From a virus: 55,096 nt of DNA. Within the stretch, counting starts at the first letter, position 1; every line of letters starts with the position of its first letter. The DNA lies in IMG/VR virus record IMGVR_UViG_3300045988_127072, positions 1 to 55,096 of that record; one strand, given 5' to 3'. Of this stretch, positions 1-55,096 are shown in pieces. The notes beneath the pieces are model-generated. The model ran no database searches, was not told the DNA's origin, and saw only the letters and a list, made by a program, of their open reading frames with translations. The position numbers and the translations under genes were made by a program.

Positions 1-38
1 CTTGAAAAATATAGCGGTTTATTCAGATATTTATTACC
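1..38. repeat. terminal overlap identical to 55059..55096 (circular closure or terminal redundancy)
   Basis: cttgaaaaatatagcggtttattcagatatttattacc is present at both window ends, 38/38 identical. Confidence 0.95.
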
Positions 39-73
39 TTTGCACTGCACATGGCGTTGTGCATATCAGGATC

Positions 74-110
74 GGGTGGAACCGGCTTGTACCGGACCAC
101 CCGTTTTTTT
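74..110 (+). terminator. rho-independent terminator, plus-strand orientation
   Basis: GGGTGG aaCCGGcttgtaCCGGa CCACCC hairpin followed by g+TTTTTTT. The T-run is on the plus strand only. It lies 69 nt downstream of the cassette D stop when read across the circular junction. Confidence 0.7.
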
Positions 111-125
111 ATACCCAAGATACGG

Positions 126-142
126 TTCGCCAATCCCCCCAG
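126..142 (-). repeat. putative recombination crossover site s3 (CTGGGGGGATTGGCGAA on minus strand)
   Basis: Shares the core CTGGGGGGA-T with s1, s2 and s4. Lies 2 codons past the stop of 149..709, in the same codon phase and same orientation as s4. Confidence 0.5.
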
Positions 143-148
143 AGGGAA

Positions 149-709
149 TTAGGTAATATTTACTCCTTTAATAAGTAACCATTCTTCCCATGTTTTTCCT
201 AAGTTATATGATTTTCTCACATAAATATTTTCGGTACCATCCGATATGTAAATTTGAGCGGCACCAAATGATTTTGAACATAGGACAACTAGTACACCAT
301 ATTTATAAGCATATAAAGGCCATGTTCCCTGAACACTTTCATTCGTATTATAGATGCCATTAATGTTTGTATCAAGAGAAGCTGGATTATTATATCCTCT
401 TAAAAATCCCAAAGAATCCGGCAGAAGTCCCCCCAGTTTTGATGCAAGTGACTGCATCGTCATTTGTGCGGCATCTCCGCTACTTTGTAAAACCCTTACA
501 TTTGCGGCATCTGTCACAGTCGGAAGTTCATTTTCATACACGTCATTTCCTGTTGCAGCAGCGGCAGCAAATGTTGAAGTTTCTGACAAAGCCATAACCA
601 TTCTTGTGGAAACCATGTCCACCATCTCATCCACTGTTACATTCTGTTCGTTACCGTCTTTATCAACAGCCTTAAAACCAACAATATTGTCTAAATTCAA
701 ATCACTCAT
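149..709 (-). CDS. tail-fibre tip / receptor-binding protein, currently expressed form (constant N-terminus + C-terminal cassette A)
   Basis: 186-aa ORF, last gene of the minus-strand tail module. Residues 92-95 (LGGL) are encoded by site s4. The C-terminal ...SYNLGKTWEEW... tip motif is echoed in the plus-strand cassettes. Confidence 0.7.
   Translation of the reverse strand: MSDLNLDNIVGFKAVDKDGNEQNVTVDEMVDMVSTRMVMALSETSTFAAAAATGNDVYENELPTVTDAANVRVLQSSGDAAQMTMQSLASKLGGLLPDSLGFLRGYNNPASLDTNINGIYNTNESVQGTWPLYAYKYGVLVVLCSKSFGAAQIYISDGTENIYVRKSYNLGKTWEEWLLIKGVNIT
420..436 (-). repeat. putative recombination crossover site s4 inside the tip gene (CTGGGGGGACTTCTGCC on minus strand)
   Basis: The 11-nt core CTGGGGGGACT is identical to s1 (54343..54353) but inverted. 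CTG is codon 92 of 149..709, in phase 0. Confidence 0.65.
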
Positions 710-32600: not shown

Positions 32601-32798
32601 TTATTCCTCCTTATCTATCTTAATATCCGTTACTTTGCCACGACTGATAAAACACTGACCTGTCCCCAAATCTAACATGGAACAATAGGTCTCATCTAAA
32701 ATATTACAGCATTCCCGGGACAAGGAACATTCATTACAAAATCCTTCTGATGGTTCATACAACACACCATCTATTATTATTCCGCTATTTATTTCCAT
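32601..32798 (-). CDS. small Cys-rich protein
   Basis: The track ORF 32601..33014 is trimmed to the ATG at 32798 (MEINSG...). The extension is an alternative frame of the DUF551-like gene. Confidence 0.5.
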   Translation of the reverse strand: MEINSGIIIDGVLYEPSEGFCNECSLSRECCNILDETYCSMLDLGTGQCFISRGKVTDIKIDKEE

Positions 32799-32799
32799 A

Positions 32800-33186
32800 T
32801 TAGTCTCCTTTCTCTTTAATCCGTTCCAGTACATCCCTGTTGGCTTCGAGTATCTCGTCAAAAGACGGAATAGGCATCCACATGTCACACTCGTAGTCGT
32901 TCCAATCCTCAAATTCAAATCCTCCGTCTGTCGCAACGTATGGCGATCTCCCGGATGAAACAACGATATAGCCACTAACAATCGCTCCATTTGATACCAT
33001 TCTGCAAAGAACAAGCTTGTTTGGTTCCGGCAACCGTTCCTTCACGCTTATCCACGGGGATTGCTTGGACTGCCATTCTGCACCGTCCTTAAAGCCATCC
33101 AAGTAATACGGCTGATACTCGTCATTGTATATGCTTCTATCTATCACGCAGCTTTCTATTGCTGCTTCTTCTACTGTCTGTTTCAT
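32800..33186 (-). CDS. DUF551-like protein (copy A)
   Basis: WISVKERLPEPNKLVLCRM... resembles the DUF551 pattern. The 3-prime 276 nt are about 93 percent identical to 37321..37596. Confidence 0.65.
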   Translation of the reverse strand: MKQTVEEAAIESCVIDRSIYNDEYQPYYLDGFKDGAEWQSKQSPWISVKERLPEPNKLVLCRMVSNGAIVSGYIVVSSGRSPYVATDGGFEFEDWNDYECDMWMPIPSFDEILEANRDVLERIKEKGD

Positions 33187-33331: not shown

Positions 33332-34357
33332 TTATTTCTTATTCTTTTTTTCATCAGTTTTGAATTTTTTTTTCACAACTACCGCCATTGTACTAACAGA
33401 AGTGCCACTCTCTTTAAACTTGCCTGCGCTGATTTCAAACAGTTCTCCATGTACTTCTTTCAGCCAGTTGCGGAAATCAATACATATCTTTTCCGAAGCG
33501 AATCTCCAGTGTTGGCTGGTTATTGCTGCAAGGGTTCCACCTTGTTCCAATCGATCATACATAAGCCTGACATGCTCTATATCCTGATTACCGGAAAACG
33601 GAGGATTTGCAATTATCTTAGTATAACTACCTACACTGTCTTTGGTAAAGTCTTCATCAAGCAATATTACGTTGTTAAGGGTGTGAAGATATTCTCTGTT
33701 TTCCGGCATCAGTTCATAACATTCAACCATTACAGAAGGACAAGCCCGGTGGATTGCTTTTACAAGCGCGCCACGCCCGGCACTCGGCTCCAGTACCGTA
33801 TCATCCTCATGTATCCCTCCGGCAAGCATAACCAGCCAGTCAGCAACATCGGCCGGAGTTTCAAAAAACTGGTAATCCTGCTGTAGGTTGCACCGTTTAC
33901 CCTCTTTCAGTATGGAACACACACGTTCCGGATTAAACGGGAATGTGAAACCCTGTATCTTCCCACCTTGCCATGAGCCGCCGGCTTCTTCTATCCACTT
34001 TTTTGCTTCGGCATAAGATTTTTTATTGAATTGAACTTGAGGAAGTTTGAGGATATTGTTCTCAAGAGTACAATGTTTCAGTATTTCTTCCACATTCCAT
34101 TTCTTACCTTCATCAGCAAGTTTTTTCTTTTCGTCCATTGGAGCATCCGGCGCTAACAGTGAAGATATTTTTTGAATAACTATGTTGCTTGCGTCCATGA
34201 AGGCACTGACGCAAGATATCGCTTCTATCAAAAAATCAGTGTCAACACACCCGGCCTCGTCATAGATGTCTATCCCTTCGGTCATGGATGACAGTTCATT
34301 GAGCTGCGCTACACTACCATGTAACGTTTCGATTAAAATCTTTTTTTTGTTCGTCAT
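33332..34357 (-). CDS. N6-adenine DNA methyltransferase (orphan)
   Basis: Motif I VLEPSAGRGALV and motif IV IANPPFSG. No cognate nuclease is visible. Confidence 0.7.
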   Translation of the reverse strand: MTNKKKILIETLHGSVAQLNELSSMTEGIDIYDEAGCVDTDFLIEAISCVSAFMDASNIVIQKISSLLAPDAPMDEKKKLADEGKKWNVEEILKHCTLENNILKLPQVQFNKKSYAEAKKWIEEAGGSWQGGKIQGFTFPFNPERVCSILKEGKRCNLQQDYQFFETPADVADWLVMLAGGIHEDDTVLEPSAGRGALVKAIHRACPSVMVECYELMPENREYLHTLNNVILLDEDFTKDSVGSYTKIIANPPFSGNQDIEHVRLMYDRLEQGGTLAAITSQHWRFASEKICIDFRNWLKEVHGELFEISAGKFKESGTSVSTMAVVVKKKFKTDEKKNKK

Positions 34358-35420
34358 AGCTTTTCTGTAAATAAATTCTAGTTGTGTCTACACTCCCGTG
34401 ACCTAGAAGGTCAGCCAGTTGAATAACATCTTTGTTTTTTTTCAGGAACATTTTAGCAAAGAAATGCCGGAAGGCGTGCGCGTGCATTTTCCTTGGATCA
34501 ATGCCGCAATGTTTTCCCCATGCTTTCAAGTGCTGGGAAAAGCCACGCTGTGTGATCGGGCCGAATCTCCCTACCGCAAAAATCCCGGTTTTACCATATT
34601 CTTTAGCGTAAACCTTCGCTTCCTGCTGAATTGTTTTTTGGAAGAAAAAACGTCTGTACTTGTTACCCTTTCCTTTTAATACTACTTCCCCGGATATGAT
34701 GTCTTCCCACGTAAACTGTTGGAATTCCGACAGACGGGCACCCGTTGTACCCAAAACCTTAATAAAGAAATAGTAATCCTTATTGTTTTTTGCCTTGAGA
34801 TATTCCAACAGCCGGTTATATTCCTCCTCGGTCGGCACATTGTTCACATCAAGCTTGCGCTTTATTTTGGGACGCTTCAGTTCTATAGGCTTCTTCAGCC
34901 ATTTGGAAAATCTTTCGATCGCTGTAATTCGCAAACGGATGGTAGCGGGAGATAATTTTTCTTCTTCAAGACTTTTTATAAACCTCCTGCAATTATCCAT
35001 GTTTACCTCATTGGCGTATTCGAAATACTTTTTCATGGATGTGTAATATATATAAACTGTATGAGAAGAGTAATCATTGTTGTCAGTCAGCCATATAATG
35101 AAATCATTAAGTTGTTTCTTGTTCTTATCCGAAATGACATCAAGTTTTTCCAAAGGTTTCACCGCCTTTCCCCTTTTTCCATATCCGATGTTGAGATAGG
35201 ATAATAGATCGCATATAGCTGAACACATTAGCGAATGACGCACCATGACATCTGCATTTTCACGCTTATAAACCAGATAGCCACGACGATTGACATCTTC
35301 AGTACGTTCAAGAAAATCCGTTACATATTTGATATATTTCCCGACAGTATCATAAGTTCTGCCTGTTGTGTATAAGTAGGAAATATAATCAGTTAATATC
35401 TTCTGCCTGTCATTATTCAT
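34314..35420 (-). CDS. tyrosine recombinase (integrase/invertase family)
   Basis: TGARLSEF (Arg), HAFRHFF (HxxR), LLGHGSVDTTRIYL (His...Tyr), plus an N-terminal SAM-like core-binding region. Overlaps both neighbouring genes, so there is no adjacent intergenic attP. Confidence 0.85.
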   Translation of the reverse strand: MNNDRQKILTDYISYLYTTGRTYDTVGKYIKYVTDFLERTEDVNRRGYLVYKRENADVMVRHSLMCSAICDLLSYLNIGYGKRGKAVKPLEKLDVISDKNKKQLNDFIIWLTDNNDYSSHTVYIYYTSMKKYFEYANEVNMDNCRRFIKSLEEEKLSPATIRLRITAIERFSKWLKKPIELKRPKIKRKLDVNNVPTEEEYNRLLEYLKAKNNKDYYFFIKVLGTTGARLSEFQQFTWEDIISGEVVLKGKGNKYRRFFFQKTIQQEAKVYAKEYGKTGIFAVGRFGPITQRGFSQHLKAWGKHCGIDPRKMHAHAFRHFFAKMFLKKNKDVIQLADLLGHGSVDTTRIYLQKSYDEQKKDFNRNVTW

Positions 35421-35808
35421 AATCTTGTTTAATTAAATTATACCAATCATTGCTATCTTCGAAAAAACATCTGTATCCATTAGCCGTATGTTTGCCTCTC
35501 ACTTTCCGACATATAGCACTGATCAAAGAAGGAGCCACGCCAATCATCTTACCAGCCGTTTGTATCGAAGGGAATACTCCACATAATTTCTCATCCTTTA
35601 TCAAAACAACGCTCTTTTTATTCATGCCTGCACCAGTCTTATGCCAAGCCCCACGTCCTTTAGACAGATTTTTTATACTTCTGGCCTTGGAACGTTTTGA
35701 ATGATAAACCATTTTACGACCCTTGTTGCGAGAAACACAACCTTTTAAAAATCGTCCGGTAATTAAGTCTCTCTCAAATCGCTCAGGCGGTATATATAAT
35801 TCACTCAT
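35413..35808 (-). CDS. basic DNA-binding-like protein (NUMOD-type HTH resemblance)
   Basis: FPSIQTAGKMIGVAPSLISAICRK...ANGYRCFFE resembles the DNA-binding modules of homing endonucleases. No nuclease motif is seen. Confidence 0.35.
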   Translation of the reverse strand: MSELYIPPERFERDLITGRFLKGCVSRNKGRKMVYHSKRSKARSIKNLSKGRGAWHKTGAGMNKKSVVLIKDEKLCGVFPSIQTAGKMIGVAPSLISAICRKVRGKHTANGYRCFFEDSNDWYNLIKQDYE

Positions 35809-35830
35809 TTCTATTTTCGTTTTTAGTTAA

Positions 35831-36094
35831 TTACCAATCTCCACCATCATTTAATATGCCATCAATAGTAGTTACACTATTATCAATGTTGCTGCCTCCA
35901 TATTGCGTAAATTCCGGTGTAGGATTATAGTCTGTATCTCCATGCATCATTACGTGAAGTGAGCCACTGGCTGAATACAGCCAAAGACGCTTACCATCCT
36001 TTTCCCACTTTTTTGCAAGTCGTTTCAAAGAGTCAATTAACTTATCTTCTTCGGGAGTACATTCTATCCCAGCTTCTGTTTGATATTTGCTCAT
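35831..36094 (-). CDS. hypothetical early protein
   Basis: Trimmed to MSKYQTEAG (ATG 36094). Confidence 0.5.
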   Translation of the reverse strand: MSKYQTEAGIECTPEEDKLIDSLKRLAKKWEKDGKRLWLYSASGSLHVMMHGDTDYNPTPEFTQYGGSNIDNSVTTIDGILNDGGDW

Positions 36095-36305
36095 TACTGT
36101 TCTGTTTTGAATTATATTTGAATTAATAAATTGGCACATCATAGCCCTTTTCAATCAAAAACTTTATTGCATTTAACCCAAGACGTTCTCCATGCCATTT
36201 TTCTGTTGACCACTCTCTATGATAGTGGTAGGACAAATCTTTGGTATCCAAAAAGAAAGTAAGTTCGCTACTATCTCGATTATCCTCTTTCTTCTCTGTT
36301 TTACG

Positions 36306-36788
36306 TTAATTGATTCGTACATACTTACCTGCTATATAACAAGTCCTTAGTATCTCTGCATTCTCTTCACCAAAAGCGATTAAGATGGAACCACAACCGG
36401 GTGAATCTCCGCGCGTACCATCCGGGCGAAAAAAACGAATCCTATTACGCAAAAACTTTATCGCTATTGCCTTCTCAAATATTACATCTTGAAACATCTT
36501 TGAGTCACAACGATTAAAGAGTAATGCAATTCCGTTACCATGCTCTGCCAACCGATTAACGAACCGTTCAATAAGAGGACGAGAGTAAGGCGGATTGAGC
36601 CATACACGACCTTTCCATTCTTGCGATAGTCCGTCATCATTCTTGTTATACATTTGTGTGGCTGTTTCCCAAAGTGGGTTAACCGGAGCACATGGATCTA
36701 AATCAAACTTCCCTAATGCATCTATAATTTCTTTCGGTGTGTACCATTCATCGGTAGAATTAGACGATTTTTCAAATGTTGTGTTCAT
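36306..36788 (-). CDS. DNA N6-adenine methyltransferase, phage Dam-like family (orphan)
   Basis: DEWYTPKEIIDALGKFDLDPCA and WLNPPYS. The track start at 36824 is a TTG; the ATG at 36788 is preferred. Confidence 0.75.
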   Translation of the reverse strand: MNTTFEKSSNSTDEWYTPKEIIDALGKFDLDPCAPVNPLWETATQMYNKNDDGLSQEWKGRVWLNPPYSRPLIERFVNRLAEHGNGIALLFNRCDSKMFQDVIFEKAIAIKFLRNRIRFFRPDGTRGDSPGCGSILIAFGEENAEILRTCYIAGKYVRIN

Positions 36789-36820
36789 TTCTATTCGGTT
36801 TTGAATAATTTGCCAATGTG

Positions 36821-37312
36821 TCAATGTGCTAATATGCCAATTGGCTGCGCTCTATTCCGCATGATCATTGGCATATTAGCACATTTGTGAATTAATTCAT
36901 TATTAATCAATTTTGTATCTTTCCATCTTTCCATGTATAAAATATATTCGTCAATGCAATTTTCAATTTTCTTCATGGATTGTCTCATATCAAAAGTAAA
37001 ACTACTCATTCTTCGTTTTGCTTTAATGCCGCATCGTGAACAAACTACAATATCATATCCATTTTCATCACTGATGATATTTTGTTTTATCCAATTATGG
37101 TTGGGGCTTATTTGCGAATAAGATTTTGATATTCTTTTTCTATCTTGTAACTTCCTGTCAGCATACGACTTCTCTCCTAATATCCTTTTTACACCTGCAA
37201 GAGCAGCATAGGCGTATGTAGAGCACTCACCGCTTTCAAAATCGAGATGATGATACAATGCTTCCTTGTCAATCCCAAAGTCTTTTCCGCATCCCGGACA
37301 TCTATATCCCAT
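36821..37312 (-). CDS. zinc-finger protein
   Basis: Trimmed to MGYRCPGCGKDF (ATG 37312), with a second pair CSRCG. The upstream track extension is an alternative frame of repeat R1. Confidence 0.55.
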   Translation of the reverse strand: MGYRCPGCGKDFGIDKEALYHHLDFESGECSTYAYAALAGVKRILGEKSYADRKLQDRKRISKSYSQISPNHNWIKQNIISDENGYDIVVCSRCGIKAKRRMSSFTFDMRQSMKKIENCIDEYILYMERWKDTKLINNELIHKCANMPMIMRNRAQPIGILAH

Positions 37313-37313
37313 A

Positions 37314-37699
37314 TTAATAATCTCCTTTCTCTTTAATCCGTTCAAGTACATCCTTATTGGCTTCGAGTATTTCATCAAAAGACGGAATGGGCATCCACAT
37401 GTCACACTCGTAGTCGTTCCAATCCTCAAATTCAAATCCTCCGTCTGTCGCAACGTATGGCGATCTCCCGGGTGAAACAACGATATAACCACTAACAATC
37501 GCTCCATTTGATACCATTCTGCAAAGGACAAGCTTGTTTTGTTCTGGCAACCGTTCCTTAACACTTATCCAAGGTGATTGCTTTGACTGCCATTCGGCGC
37601 CTTTAATAAAATATTTTTTGCTACCATTGGCAATCCTCCCCAATCAGGCATCTTATCGTAAGCCATACTTTTGGCTGCTTCTTCTAATGTTTGTTTCAT
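37314..37699 (-). pseudogene. DUF551-like paralogue (copy B) with frame disruption
   Basis: MKQTLEEAAKS... (ATG 37699, stop 37565) matches the copy A N-terminus. The conserved GAEWQSKQSPWISVK... body is in another frame (37314..37643, TTG start preceded by TGA). Confidence 0.5.
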
Positions 37700-37739: not shown

Positions 37740-38021
37740 TCACATACACCTTTCTTTGCACAGTGAGGGATGATAGTGGTAGGACAAATCTTTGGTATCC
37801 AAAAAGAAAGTAAGTTCGCTACTATCTCGATTATCCTCTTTCCGTGTAGATTTGTATGAGCACCATACTGAATCTCTAAACATGGTATTATCATACTCGG
37901 TCAAAGTTGGATAATTCCAATAGTCAGGATGAGCACAGCATCCTTGAATTACTGCAACCTGCAAAATATCCTCTTTTGATATTTGCATTAAAGGCTTATC
38001 GCCAATCACTATTTGCTTCAT
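37740..38021 (-). CDS. hypothetical early protein
   Basis: 93-aa ORF. Its 3-prime part carries repeat R2 (37770..37842), identical to 36218..36290. Confidence 0.55.
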   Translation of the reverse strand: MKQIVIGDKPLMQISKEDILQVAVIQGCCAHPDYWNYPTLTEYDNTMFRDSVWCSYKSTRKEDNRDSSELTFFLDTKDLSYHYHPSLCKERCM

Positions 38022-41238: not shown

Positions 41239-41763
41239 TTATTTCCTTTTCTTTTGTGTACTTTTCTCGGAGGAAATGCCTATTTCCTCGGAGGAAATGC
41301 CTATTTCCTCGGAGGAAATGCCTATTTCTTCGGAGGAAATGCCTATTTCTTCGGAGGAAATGCCTATTTCTTCGGAGGAAATAAGTCCAAATTCATCAAA
41401 TTGACATACACGTCTCAACGGGTCACAAATACTCTTATAACGTTCCTGAATCCCCTTCGATGTAATTACTTTGTCAGAATCATACAGTTTTTTAGAAAAC
41501 AACCCGACTATCAGGCAGCATTTAAAGACTTCCTGTATATACGCCTCTTCAAACCCGGTTTGTTCCGAGATAATAAAGGGCAACTCATCATCCCACCTCA
41601 CGTAGTACCCTTGTTTGTAGATAATACATAGCAGGAGAGCATATACAGTTACAGCTTTACCGCCTTGATACTTGATTAGTTTTCTAATGCGTATATCCTG
41701 AAAGAAATCCACGTCCATAGGGAAATAATCAAGTCCTAATTTTCTATTTCTTCCCATGACCAC
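41239..41763 (-). CDS. DUF4373-type (Lin1244/Lin1753-like) replication initiator-like protein with C-terminal ISSEEIG repeats
   Basis: LDYFPMDVDFFQDIRIRKLIKYQGGKAVTVYALLLCIIY matches the DUF4373 N-terminal pattern. The C-terminus carries 5.5 heptad repeats encoded by the iterons. Confidence 0.7.
   Translation of the reverse strand: MVMGRNRKLGLDYFPMDVDFFQDIRIRKLIKYQGGKAVTVYALLLCIIYKQGYYVRWDDELPFIISEQTGFEEAYIQEVFKCCLIVGLFSKKLYDSDKVITSKGIQERYKSICDPLRRVCQFDEFGLISSEEIGISSEEIGISSEEIGISSEEIGISSEEIGISSEKSTQKKRK
41268..41383. repeat. 5.5 tandem 21-bp iterons (candidate origin of replication) inside the initiator gene
   Basis: cggaggaaatgcctatttcct/t repeated head to tail. Each unit contains the dyad GGAAAT-n4-ATTTCC. 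Confidence 0.8.
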
Positions 41764-49112: not shown

Positions 49113-49133
49113 AATACAAATTTTTATATTGTT

Positions 49134-49180
49134 CCCCTCAACGGCTTAAACCGGTTGTTACCACGAATCTTACGGGAGGG
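49134..49180. repeat. 47-bp direct repeat, copy 1
   Basis: cccctcaacggcttaaaccggttgttaccacgaatcttacgggaggg; 46/47 identical to 49412..49458. Ends are self-complementary (CCCTC/GAGGG) with a central AACCGGTT palindrome. Confidence 0.85.
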
Positions 49181-49411
49181 GATATATTAGACCTTTCGGC
49201 GGTACTTGTGCCCAACCAAGTTTACTTAATGCACTAAGGACAAATCGGTGCACCGAAAGTATGTTCAATCAATTATTATTATAGACCCTCAATACGTCAC
49301 GGCATCCCTGCTGGTATTGACTCCTATAATCAATCCGTTTGTCTGCATCATACGGCTTATGAGTTACACCATATGAGCATTTACAATGATGTGAAAGAAC
49401 TTTAAGCAGCT

Positions 49412-49458
49412 CCCCTCAACGGCTTAAACCGGTTGTTACCACAAATCTTACGGGAGGG
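49412..49458. repeat. 47-bp direct repeat, copy 2
   Basis: Same sequence with a single g-to-a difference. Lies 8 nt downstream of the stop of 49466..49750. Confidence 0.85.
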
Positions 49459-49465
49459 AAGAAAT

Positions 49466-49750
49466 TTATTTATCTGTTGAGATACAAGCCAGCTGTTTCT
49501 TTAGATGACTTATACGATCACATTCGATATCACATATTTGGCTACCTTGTTTTTGGTTGTGGGGATAATGCTTGCATTTCCCATTTTGATAACAAGGACA
49601 TAACTGTCGGTACACTTTCACAGCTCGTTCCTCTATTTCCTTGGATGCGATATTAACAGCCTCCAATGCGTCAGCTTTAAAAATCAACGGCTCTATCGGA
49701 TTGCCAAGCTGGTAGCATTTATTATTTATAAAATCGGTTGCTTTGCTCAT
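49466..49750 (-). CDS. Cys-rich hypothetical protein
   Basis: 94-aa ORF with LCPCYQNGKCKHY...CDIEC. Confidence 0.55.
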   Translation of the reverse strand: MSKATDFINNKCYQLGNPIEPLIFKADALEAVNIASKEIEERAVKVYRQLCPCYQNGKCKHYPHNQKQGSQICDIECDRISHLKKQLACISTDK

Positions 49751-53018: not shown

Positions 53019-53115
53019 TGGTCTTATGAAATTGTATAATGTCCTTTCGTCATAATATAAGTGGCGTGCATCTTCACACGCTCCCCACAAAGATAAATAT
53101 TGTTTCCCTTATTAC

Positions 53116-53421: not shown

Positions 53422-53479
53422 AATTAATATGTTTTATAACATTTATAATTTGTTGCTCGTTATTTCAAAAAGTTGCACC

Positions 53480-53614
53480 TTTACATCGAACATCAACGAT
53501 GTTAGTCGCACTTCGGTGCGTGGATTGAAACGACATTGTGATTTGCTCACAAATTAGTATTTTCTAACAGTGAGCTGTATAGTGAAGAGGCGGAGAAATC
53601 CGCCTCTGTTTTTT
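53480..53614 (+). ncRNA. candidate plus-strand structured small RNA ending in an intrinsic terminator
   Basis: Hairpins CATCG/CGATG (53484..53501), CGCAC-UUCG-GUGCG (53507..53520) and GCUCAC/GUGAGC (53545..53575), then GAGGCGGA-gaaa-TCCGCCTC + TGTTTTTT (53587..53614). The T-run is on the plus strand only. The 5-prime end is not defined. Confidence 0.45.
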
Positions 53615-53676: not shown

Positions 53677-53895
53677 TTAGTAGATAACAGCCTTTATCTT
53701 CATGTCAGTTATACAAACACTCTCTTGTCTCTGCACGGAATAGTAAGTAACGTGATTGTTCGATACTTCAAACATTGGATAAATCGAATCGGGATCGTCT
53801 TTAATTCCTTCAACCGTGAATTTAACTATACCTTGCTTTGCTGCCTGTTTGAATGCTCTGCGAAAATCTGCATCTAATGAATTGAAAGTTTTCAT
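53677..53895 (-). CDS. hypothetical protein
   Basis: 72-aa ORF. Confidence 0.55.
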   Translation of the reverse strand: MKTFNSLDADFRRAFKQAAKQGIVKFTVEGIKDDPDSIYPMFEVSNNHVTYYSVQRQESVCITDMKIKAVIY

Positions 53896-53932
53896 AACCC
53901 TTGCCCGTCAAGCCGATAGCACAGCGTTTAGT

Positions 53933-54316
53933 TTATAATTTAATTTGATTTTCTATCGCGAATTTAGCAAGGCAAGTAGCCTGTTTCTCTGAACACTTCA
54001 TGAACTTAATAACAGATTCACAAATCGATGCAATAAAATCGTTACCAAGTTCTCTTGCTTTCAATTCGATACCTGCCATCATATCATAGCTAATCTGGTA
54101 ACTCATTGATGTTCTGTCTCCATAAACACAACCATTAATCCACATCATCTTACTGGCAACTTCCTCAATCGGGTTTAATTGCTTAGATGCGCTTTTTCTA
54201 GTTTTATAAACTTTCTGCTTCGGCATGGAATCTATATCTTCAACCACAACTTCTTTTTTCGCAAACATCTTAACCTTTCCCTTAGAGTCTTTACAGATAA
54301 AAAAATTCTTCTGCAT
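53933..54316 (-). CDS. hypothetical protein adjacent to the invertible region
   Basis: 127-aa ORF. Its start codon is 27 nt from site s1. Confidence 0.6.
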   Translation of the reverse strand: MQKNFFICKDSKGKVKMFAKKEVVVEDIDSMPKQKVYKTRKSASKQLNPIEEVASKMMWINGCVYGDRTSMSYQISYDMMAGIELKARELGNDFIASICESVIKFMKCSEKQATCLAKFAIENQIKL

Positions 54317-54327
54317 TTACAAAATAA

Positions 54328-54615
54328 ACCACAAAAATTGTTCTGGGGGGACTGATAGGGATTGCCTCATGCATTAAGGATAAAAGAATGAAGACAGTGG
54401 ATGCTAATGAAGCCCCAATGAATGAATTTATTTTTGCATATATTGGTTCTACCAATTTACCTACAGATTCTTCACCGGGAGGTCTATTGACATTGGGATT
54501 TATGGACGGATCGAGTAGTTGTAAACTTCAGTTTTTTTTCCGACACGATAATGTATTTAAACGTATACAATGGTATAACAATTGGCAAAATTGGACTAAA
54601 ATCTTAACAGAATAA
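54328..54615 (+). CDS. silent alternative C-terminal cassette C of the tail-tip protein
   Basis: The frame is open from 54328 through s1 (…VLGGLIGIASC…) into the track ORF 54388..54615. Ends ...RIQWYNNWQNWTKILTE, resembling the cassette A tip. Opposite strand to all neighbours. Confidence 0.6.
   Translation, partial: TTKIVLGGLIGIASCIKDKRMKTVDANEAPMNEFIFAYIGSTNLPTDSSPGGLLTLGFMDGSSSCKLQFFFRHDNVFKRIQWYNNWQNWTKILTE
54343..54359 (+). repeat. putative recombination crossover site s1 (CTGGGGGGACTGATAGG)
   Basis: 11-nt core identical to s4 but inverted; 15/17 identical to s2. In frame with cassette C. Confidence 0.65.
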
Positions 54616-55063
54616 AGTCCATGATACCGAGCTGGGGGAACTGATCGGTACGGCTACGAGAGAAAAAACAGGCTTGAGCGATAGTATACAAGCCTTAAAC
54701 TCTACGTTTTATAGCATTTCTAGCGGATCAAAGAATGCTACTTTGTTTAAAGTTTGTGATTATGGCAAAAATATTCTCCATCGATTATATATCTATAGTG
54801 CACCTAATGGTACATCGGATACTTGCAGATATATTCGTGTGATCCTCTCAGACAATAATATATTTGCAAATATGTTGTTGGCAAAGGGAGGGAGTAATAT
54901 CAGACTTTTTAAAGATGAAACAAGTTTTTATGTTTACACTTATAACGGTACGTGGTCGAGGTCTAATATTGAGGTTTTTGCAAATGAACCTCATCGCTTT
55001 TATTTCACAGACGTGACAGATCAAATCAGTATATCAGATTTGGAAGAAATCTCTATATCTTGA
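54608..55063 (+). CDS. silent alternative C-terminal cassette D of the tail-tip protein
   Basis: The frame is open from 54608 through s2 (…ELGELIGTATREKTG…) into the track ORF 54674..55063, whose listed start is a TTG. Contains ...YVYTYNGTWSRSNI... Confidence 0.6.
   Translation, partial: QNKVHDTELGELIGTATREKTGLSDSIQALNSTFYSISSGSKNATLFKVCDYGKNILHRLYIYSAPNGTSDTCRYIRVILSDNNIFANMLLAKGGSNIRLFKDETSFYVYTYNGTWSRSNIEVFANEPHRFYFTDVTDQISISDLEEISIS
54632..54648 (+). repeat. putative recombination crossover site s2 (CTGGGGGAACTGATCGG)
   Basis: Same core with one G-to-A change. In frame with cassette D. Confidence 0.6.
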
Positions 55064-55096
55064 AAAATATAGCGGTTTATTCAGATATTTATTACC
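55059..55096. repeat. terminal overlap identical to 1..38
   Basis: 38/38 identity with the window start. The stop codon of cassette D lies inside it. Confidence 0.95.

Follow-up and report, generated by a model that had tools for sequence, protein, structure and literature searches.

The 55,096-nt viral record IMGVR_UViG_3300045988_127072 of IMG/VR, analyzed over its whole length and called the window here, carries a putative switch in which copies of a short recombination site join one tail-tip gene to alternative 3′ cassettes. The first and last 38 nt of the window are the same (1-38 = 55059-55096), which makes it a circular phage genome of 55,058 bp. Two of the sites, s1 and s2 (54.3-54.6 kb), therefore physically adjoin positions 1..709, and the switch spans the window ends. 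Nearly all genes of the window lie on the minus strand. In minus-strand order, fiber-like genes of 744 and 1193 amino acids (aa) and three small open reading frames (ORFs) are followed by a 186-aa gene (709..149), called the tip gene here, a third site (s3, 142..126), a hairpin (110..74), and then cassettes C and B on the opposite strand. Beyond cassette B come a conserved 56-bp flank, 127-aa and 72-aa ORFs, and genes for an HTH_7 protein, Rha, a holin, and an endolysin. Read from the tip gene, the state of the array in the window is A(+), s3(+), a flipped terminator, C(-), and B(-). The sites, the gene, and the hairpin that the initial annotation of this DNA had listed are all present. A tRNA scan and an Rfam search (gathering threshold) of the whole window gave zero matches.

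The tip gene (149..709, minus strand) is built from a constant part and a cassette that meet at the fourth site, s4. The constant N-terminal part (residues 1-91; 437..709, minus strand) recurs with 97-100% identity in over 100 public proteins whose C-termini are unrelated. The crossover site s4 (420..436, minus strand; CTGGGGGGACTTCT at 436..423) starts in frame with the CTG at 436..434, which is codon 92 of the gene, and encodes L92-G-G-L (LGGLL). The homology of relatives to the window changes partner exactly at s4. The body of cassette A, the currently expressed variable tip, occupies 149..419 on the minus strand and together with s4 supplies residues 92-186 and the stop codon. The two silent cassettes lie on the plus strand. 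Cassette B (54343..54615, 90 aa) is headed by s1 (54343-54359, CTGGGGGGACTGATAGG), its frame opens with LGGLIG, and it is the expressed cassette in contig L073. Cassette C (54632..55063, 143 aa) is headed by s2 (54632-54648, CTGGGGGAACTGATCGG), opens with LGELIG, and ends in a stop codon at 55061-55063, which are bases 3-5 of the circle. Cassettes A (95 aa), B, and C are non-homologous and promoterless, each runs in frame from its site to its stop, and each is found joined to the constant part in other contigs. From this context, the cassettes presumably form the receptor-binding tip of the tail.

The close relatives of the constant part come from IMG/VR, metagenome contigs, and a large protein collection; a search with the constant part returned nothing from GTDB species genomes or GenBank phages. 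Cassette A also occurs elsewhere as a silent cassette or fused to an unrelated N-terminus of 38 aa. The proteins P0127 and P0129 (132-133 aa) have this second arrangement, in which cassette A is joined at LG(E/G)L to the sequence MADRKLNEV…, and such a fusion indicates a cassette pool common to phage lineages with different constant parts.

A family consensus for the crossover site, CTGGGRGRAYT, was derived independently from the relatives. It occurs exactly four times in the window, at 132-142(-), 426-436(-), 54343-54353(+), and 54632-54642(+), and these occurrences are the sites s1-s4. The expected number is 0.15 ± 0.39, and none of 100 shuffled sequences reached four. The exact 9-mer CTGGGGGGA is found three times compared to 0.29 expected. 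With one mismatch allowed it is found five times compared to 6.6 expected, which is not above chance, and the significance of the sites therefore rests on the longer consensus, the clustering, and the reading frame. The same motif is present at 294 sites of the relatives and in contigs of Phocaeicola vulgatus. The window sites carry CTGGGGG(G/A)A(C/T)T, and the 294 relative sites have the cores CTGGGGGGA (105 sites), CTGGGGGAA (51 sites), and CTGGGAGRA (138 sites), all of equal length.

Conservation extends to the right of the core at position 10 (C, 93%), position 11 (T, 100%), and position 14 (T, 96%), so that positions 1-11 and 14 are conserved overall; in the 20 nt to the left of the core, no column exceeds 71%. 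The sites are shared as the initial annotation proposed, but its 17-bp core contracts to a conserved element of only about 11-14 bp, CTGGGRGRAYTNNT. The conserved bases also encode L-G-G/E-L-hydrophobic, which makes the constraint on the DNA inseparable from the constraint on the protein. Core position 8 is G or A and goes with the cassette rather than with the left flank (A in 17/17 copies of cassette C, with four different left flanks). This polymorphism places strand exchange, as far as can be judged from which side it follows, within CTGGGGG. The shared codon phase of s3 and s4, also pointed out earlier, is real but coincidental, because successive sites, compared over the cassette types, are spaced in all three phases (19/14/13).

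The hairpin between s3 and the convergent cassettes is predicted to be a one-way intrinsic terminator (74..110, plus strand) that consists of a stem-loop at 74-103 and T7 at 104-110 and faces away from the tip gene, an orientation designated T′. The hairpin (74..103) with its T7 has a folding energy of -20.7 kcal/mol and a z-score of -3.2 on the plus strand. Read on the minus strand, the stem-loop has A7 in front and GAUCCUGA behind, and a U-tract is absent. The combination of a G+C-rich hairpin with a U-tract is found on the plus strand only, which fits the earlier claim that the hairpin cannot end the minus-strand operon in the present state. A simple terminator scanner missed the 74-110 hairpin because of an internal loop in its stem; the other matches of this scanner, at 440-459 and 54970-54993, are at chance level and were rejected as terminators. 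The hairpin is nearly invariant across relatives and lies at the convergence of the plus and minus cassette runs in 50/50 parsed loci where the motif was seen. Its orientation in these 50 loci is productive (T) in 35, flipped (T′, as in the window) in 13, and bidirectional (A7-hairpin-T6) in two. These arrangements support a putative one-way terminator that rides on invertible DNA. The proposal that inversion places the terminator right behind the newly expressed cassette fits an s4 x s2 event, after which the correctly facing hairpin would lie about 70 nt past the stop of cassette C; it does not fit an s4 x s1 event, which would put the terminator behind B and C together, about 0.5 kb past the stop of cassette B.

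The public contigs establish that the switch flips in this family, and relatives of the window contain the predicted products of inversion. A single protein search with the constant part and cassettes A, B, and C concatenated as the query returned 394 proteins. P0001 consists of the constant part of the window joined to cassette C of the window, with 100% identity in both parts, and 14 more proteins (P0002-P0015) are constant part plus C fusions with 95-100% identity. About 40 further proteins from this search have the same constant part (97-100%) and unrelated C-termini. Constant part plus A forms a 51-member cluster, and constant part plus B is represented by L073; the exact sequence of the window in this last combination is absent from the protein collection by exact look-up. 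P0001 and P0002 are encoded on contigs L002-L013, in which the constant part runs collinear with that of the window (99%). The block of cassette C, hairpin, and s3, 98% identical, lies in the opposite orientation there, and its breakpoints fall on s4/s2 and s3. These contigs hold one to four further silent cassettes. The cassette order varies among contigs that are nearly identical in other respects; L006, L007, L008, L010, and L012 have one set of cassettes in permuted arrangements, and the 3′ tail moves along with each cassette. The initial annotation had placed here the expression end of a switch that inverts cassettes at an in-frame crossover site, and the existence of its predicted s4 x s2 product as P0001, together with the inverted block in relatives, bears this out.

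The wider set of relatives follows a single layout rule. The IMG/VR contig set comprises 80 loci that share the constant part of the window. Twenty-nine of the 80 contigs stop 7-142 nt past the s4 site, and ten of these ends fall at 54-55 nt, a distance that is likely the k-mer length of the assembler. Such ends are what an assembly graph produces when a single left flank leads into several right flanks within the same sample. The 63 loci that were parsed contain one to nine cassettes each, of at least 67 types, and the layout ‘+...+ -...-’ is obeyed by all 63. Inversion between a plus site and a minus site always recreates this layout, which accounts for the strict pattern, and the cassettes that flank the hairpin remain tail to tail.

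The site s3 (126..142, minus strand; CTGGGGGGATTGGCGAA on that strand, CTGGGGGGATT...) is an ‘empty’ crossover site. It begins two codons past the TAA of the tip gene (TAA TTC CCT CTG) in the same frame as this gene. Past the s3 core, the sequence TGGGGGGATTGGCGAACCGTATCTTGGGTATAA can be aligned to the 3′ terminus of the relatives' cassette I (…SWGNWKTVSLK-stop), and the remnant 3′ tail of a cassette-I-type domain lies at 109..141 on the minus strand (WGDWRTVSWV-stop, frame +1 relative to s3). A cassette-I tail directly behind the s3 core means that s3 is a head site fused to the tail of a body-less cassette. The cassette body was probably lost through a deletion between the true site and a look-alike, TGGGG(G/T)(G/A)AT, in the WG(D/N)W tail. 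The use of such look-alike sites is illustrated by L078 of IMG/VR. About 90 nt past its constant part, this contig passes at CTGGGGGG into the interior of a cassette in inverted orientation and encodes a nonsense C-terminus, which looks like the result of an aberrant inversion at an internal look-alike site.

Empty sites beside the hairpin are found in a long form in the window, L014, L015, L042, and L032 and in a short form in L018, L019, L020, L023, L030, L063, and L070. The long and short forms together have ten different left flanks in the relatives, including the outer flank beside the recombinase gene. The constant part fused to the short empty tail (122 aa) forms a 64-member cluster by exact look-up, and one member alone is found on 22 contigs. 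The exact window sequence of the constant part with the long s3 tail is absent from the protein collection by the same look-up. The integrated prophage L190 is an example of the fused state, with the order e(+) T′ Q(-) recombinase (e, empty site; Q, silent cassette). The ten left flanks and the fusions to the constant part identify the s3 class as an active crossover site that yields a truncated tip. The s3 of the window itself deviates at positions 10 and 14 and may nevertheless be competent for recombination. The earlier view of s3 as a crossover site agrees with these data, but s3 does not bracket cassette A as a segment. Instead, it heads the next head-to-tail cassette, whose body has been deleted and whose out-of-frame tail (WGDWRTVSWV-stop) is left.

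A tyrosine recombinase of 412 aa with Arm-DNA-bind_5, SAM_5, and Phage_integrase domains follows the outer flank in 31 related loci, on the same strand and adjoining the array. In relatives, the DNA just upstream of the gene for this enzyme matches the outer flank of the window (54287..54342) at 94-96% identity. The window and L014 keep this flank and then have the 127-aa ORF in place of the recombinase; the 127-aa and 72-aa ORFs (53677..54316, minus strand) occupy the place of the 412-aa recombinase and a 79-aa gene. Pfam, PHROGs, and NCBIfam searches with these two ORFs gave no match and no recombinase domain, and exact look-up of the 127-aa ORF gave no called-gene record. A recombinase gene that flanks the array is absent from the window, a point that the initial annotation had missed, and the window is accordingly a member of the family by descent whose flanking recombinase has been lost. 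The sole site-specific recombinase of the window is an Xer-like tyrosine recombinase of 368 aa (34314..35420, minus strand), which is encoded about 20 kb from the switch and is 23% identical to the 412-aa enzyme. No serine recombinase was found among the window ORFs by phmmer with a Hin-like query (best E = 0.11), and the 95-aa HTH_7 protein consists of the HTH domain alone.

Two Bacteroides phages help to distinguish between the candidate enzymes. BS-TP3 has a 91%-identical homolog of the Xer-like protein and no switch sites. BS-TP2 has a multi-cassette switch with the sites CTGGAAGAACT beside a 61%-identical homolog of the 412-aa enzyme and has no Xer-like gene. This distribution favors the adjacent 412-aa-type enzyme as the invertase, and the Xer-like protein, with its 23% identity, its presence in BS-TP3 without the sites, and its absence from BS-TP2, was not adopted as a relocated invertase. 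The inverting enzyme would then be of the 412-aa type. The switch in the cultured phage BS-TP2 (PQ571275) is unannotated; it lies beside gp3, annotated as an ‘integrase’, and its sites are at the record ends, 141, 585, 880, and 56772. Linearization of this GenBank record exactly at a site suggests an assembly break caused by inversion. A P. vulgatus chromosome (L177) has the recombinase gene, whose product is 97% identical to BS-TP2 gp3, and the lysis-gene block inverted with respect to the tail genes relative to BS-TP2, and this large inversion begins at the outer end of the array.

The 412-aa enzyme is also a candidate integrase. Integrated prophages have the gene order recombinase, 79 aa, 68 aa, HTH_7, and then host cob genes, with the junction corresponding to about position 53090 of the window. 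The enzyme of L190-L192 is encoded in this module about 1.5 kb from the phage-host junction, and a location beside the attachment site (att) means that it may be the lysogeny integrase. The 412-aa enzyme was considered as a dedicated invertase and was not assigned that role because it belongs to an att-adjacent module. An unlikely further possibility is that one arm-binding tyrosine recombinase serves as both the lysogeny integrase, with att about 1.5 kb away, and the invertase. The phage BV01 has three integrase-domain genes, and the att-adjacent one is required for excision (PMC8354205). The integrated prophages L190, L191, and L194 match the window up to …AATATTTATCTT and then run on into host cobalamin genes. 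The likely attP is at about 53090, between the HTH_7 gene and Rha, and the window keeps it despite the loss of the 412-aa integrase-type gene. The att junction itself (…AATATTTATCTT/TGTGGGGAGCG…) was considered as a crossover site and agrees with only 7/11 consensus positions, which is unconvincing.

We are fairly confident that 74..709 and 54343..55063, which are linked where the circle closes, make up a multi-cassette tail-tip shufflon of the BV01-like Phocaeicola/Bacteroides kind; the copy in the window is most likely locked. This reading draws on the set of sites and their frames, on the hairpin, on the fusions and the inverted and permuted arrangements observed in contigs, and on the absence of the recombinase gene. 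In the proposed mechanism, the constant 91-aa part (709..437) ends in the short asymmetric site CTGGGRGRAYTNNT, which encodes L-G-G/E-L, and a tyrosine recombinase would invert the DNA between s4 and any oppositely oriented copy, with strand exchange inside CTGGGGG. Each inversion would bring the constant part in frame with another promoterless C-terminal cassette of about 90-150 aa. The head-to-tail cassettes form two runs that converge on a single putative one-way terminator, and any plus/minus inversion preserves the arrangement ‘+...+ T -...-’. The site s3 would still be a usable empty site, and joining it to the constant part would produce a truncated, tip-less protein. Unless some recombinase reaches it in trans, the copy in the window would stay locked with cassette A expressed and with no terminator that faces the right way.

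L014 (99.8%) and L015 (100%), the contigs nearest to the window, have the same state as the window, so the three contigs of this lineage represent one state. Replacement of the adjacent recombinase by unrelated ORFs indicates that the window copy is probably locked with cassette A expressed, a view that we hold with some reserve. Several points weigh against the locked-shufflon interpretation. The 412-aa enzyme sits in the int-79aa-68aa-HTH_7-att module at the prophage end and is possibly just the lysogeny integrase, and the window retains the Xer-like recombinase, a possible source of activity in trans. Both silent cassettes, B and C, are intact and the C protein is 100% identical to expressed copies, which means either that any loss of activity is recent or that activity persists. 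The terminator role of the hairpin is a prediction. The receptor-binding role of the tip is drawn from its context: Pfam, PHROGs, and NCBIfam searches of the tip protein gave nothing informative, and the AlphaFold2 model of constant part plus A (29-sequence alignment) has a mean pLDDT of 59 and a pTM of 0.36, which is too poor for a fold search.

Four other explanations were weighed against the locked shufflon. The strongest of these, which we consider doubtful but worth keeping in view, is that the shufflon is still active in the window through an enzyme acting in trans, either its own 368-aa Xer-like protein or a 412-aa-type enzyme from a co-resident related prophage. In its favor, four of four sites fit the family consensus and the ORFs of B and C are intact. 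Conservation of the Xer-like gene extends through the family and takes in a P. vulgatus genome that itself bears a shufflon, the integrase-like 412-aa protein need not be the invertase, and the related phages are very common in gut samples, which makes co-infection plausible. Set against this are the occurrence of the switch and a 412-aa-type enzyme without an Xer-like gene in BS-TP2 and of the Xer-like gene (91%) without sites in BS-TP3, the one state in all three lineage contigs, and the fixed module in which the Xer-like gene lies with a methyltransferase-like gene, 20 kb off the switch. It is improbable, more so than activity in trans, that s3 is not a recombination site in the window and is instead a scar or a chance look-alike produced by the W-G-D-W codons (TGG GGG GAT TGG) in the tail of a truncated cassette. 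The sequence to the right of its core is homologous to the cassette I tail, it departs from the consensus at position 10 (T for C, a 7% minority) and position 14 (C for T, which is 96% conserved), and in the four contigs with the exact long version and cassette A upstream, the left flank is always the tail of A. However, the same long version follows another cassette in L032, and the short version has at least six different left flanks, including the outer flank. Fusions of the constant part to the empty site are common, and the junction TCCCT/CTGGGGGGA resembles genuine junctions between a cassette tail and a site.

The remaining two explanations concern the family as a whole and have very little to recommend them. 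Ordinary homologous recombination or modular exchange between phages, rather than programmed inversion, could be considered because lineages with different constant parts have cassettes in common and because the early regions of these phages are highly mosaic. The breakpoints, however, coincide exactly with a motif whose 11-14 bp are too few for homologous recombination, 63/63 loci keep the strict ‘+...+ T -...-’ layout, many contigs terminate at the site, and all configurations were detected at the level of reads in single BV01-like populations (PMC13596623), which makes this explanation highly improbable. Slipped-strand ON/OFF phase variation of the tip gene through the G6 tract of the core, which the initial annotation had offered as an extra layer, deserves even less credence and is dropped. 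The G6 run does lie in frame within coding sequence at s4, but the tract is not conserved, being interrupted in 138/294 relative sites, and no site has a tract of another length. All 94 of the 94 constant-part/cassette junctions examined are in frame, and the sole odd junction, that of L078, is an aberrant inversion with no slip.

The tip-less fusion state is common in integrated prophages. We entertain, as an unlikely extension of the shufflon mechanism, that the constant part joined to the empty site is a deliberate tip-less OFF state and that the flipped terminator permits late read-through downstream, which would make expression of the recombinase dependent on the state of the switch. If this were true, the tip-less state could re-target adsorption to other fibers, and read-through of the flipped terminator in relatives would reach the recombinase/integrase gene on the same strand.

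Other features of the window lie outside the switch. A perfect 73-nt direct repeat (36219-36291 / 37770-37842) and a 296-nt repeat with 92% identity (32798-33093 / 37315-37610) are present. The DNA between the 73-nt copies is absent from L096 and L098, which are 100% identical elsewhere, and the window therefore has an indel of about 1.5 kb that contains a Dam-like methyltransferase gene (36306..36824) and a 247-aa ORF. The Xer-like gene belongs to a conserved three-gene module (33335-35841) in the mosaic early region that encodes a 341-aa methyltransferase-like protein, the 368-aa Xer-like protein, and a 131-aa ORF. The Xer-like and methyltransferase-like genes are also found in Bacteroides phage BS-TP3 (gp48/gp49), and the module is possibly a recombinase-coupled modification system. 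Six to seven tandem copies of a 21-nt unit, TTTCCTCGGAGGAAATGCCTA, at 41241-41403 beside Lin1244_N and DnaB-like genes look like replication-origin iterons. Minus-strand genes surround a plus-strand hairpin with a T-run at 53586-53607, and the preceding stretch (53435-53537) is 97-98% conserved in relatives; 53435-53607 might give rise to a small RNA, antisense or regulatory, upstream of the HTH_7 gene. A 56-nt direct repeat with 93% identity and copies 278 nt apart (49133-49188 / 49411-49466) is located in a gene-poor stretch.

Gut Bacteroidaceae vary their capsules by DNA inversion, and a phage tail-tip shufflon is the matching counter-move. Such a switch helps to explain the broad or shifting host range of these very common human gut phages. 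In the window, three cassettes, an empty site, and a single movable terminator make up a compact natural case. The loss of its recombinase makes it a useful negative control for finding the invertase, and the locus is also suited to linking single cassettes to receptors.

The organization of the window switch can be compared to three established groups of inversion systems. The shufflon of the R64/IncI1 plasmids uses the tyrosine recombinase Rci and sfx sites to vary the tips of PilV. Both systems change the C-terminus of an adhesin by multiple inversions and depend on the tyrosine class of recombinase. Like the window sites, sfx sites are asymmetric, with a conserved core and right side and a non-conserved left side, and inversion is apparently preferred over deletion between direct sites in both. 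In contrast, the enzyme of the window's relatives is arm-binding and IntDOT-like (Arm-DNA-bind_5 + SAM_5), and membership in the Rci family is not claimed for it. The sfx sequence is unrelated to the window sites, R64 segments are bracketed by inverted sites whereas the cassettes here form two head-to-tail runs onto one terminator, and the target is a pilus in R64 and a phage tail tip here.

The tail-fiber switches of Mu (G/Gin), P1 (C/Cin), e14 (Pin), and p15B (Min) are driven by serine invertases. They resemble the window in that inversion joins a constant fiber N-terminus to alternative C-termini and changes the host range. The convergent cassette pair around the terminator of the window is reminiscent of the Sv-U / U′-Sv′ arrangement, and p15B Min also has several crossover sites. 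The window differs because it has no serine recombinase and its relatives use a tyrosine recombinase. Its sites are not gix/cix-like, no U-like chaperone gene accompanies each cassette, and up to nine cassettes occur per locus. The Rin shufflon of Bifidobacterium prophages is reportedly also phage-encoded and recombinase-driven and shuffles the receptor-binding tail gene of a temperate gut phage; its host belongs to another phylum, and its sites and proteins are said to be unrelated. The window switch works like the R64 and the Mu/P1/p15B switches and belongs to neither family.

The closest known system is the active tail-fiber shufflon of BV01-like P. vulgatus phages, which has the motif TGGGAGAACT and a flanking recombinase (Res Sq preprint, 16 Sep 2026, PMC13596623). 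It contains three cassettes that give 6 variants, and all configurations were seen in reads (PMC13596623). Its core is directional, as in the window, and its TGGGAGAACT is the variant CTGGGAGAACT, which is common in the relatives of the window. In both systems the motif overlaps the distal end of a tail-fiber gene and the cassettes are non-homologous, and the flanking tyrosine recombinase is present in the window's relatives. A P. vulgatus ATCC 8482 contig has six cassettes, CTGGGAG(G/A)ACT sites, and a recombinase 95% identical to that of the window relatives, and more distant P. vulgatus prophages have up to nine cassettes. The window differs in that its constant part is about 53-57% identical to those of P. 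vulgatus prophages, with little DNA similarity outside the switch, and in that it has no flanking recombinase. The preprint makes no mention of a cassette pool of at least 67 types, an empty site, a truncated tip, or a single terminator on which the cassette runs converge (PMC13596623). The present analysis extends that work with this shared pool, a simple layout rule, and the truncated-tip state, and the contig breaks at the site are a practical warning for virome assembly. The window switch is a shufflon of this recently described BV01-like kind, with a divergent constant part and without the recombinase.

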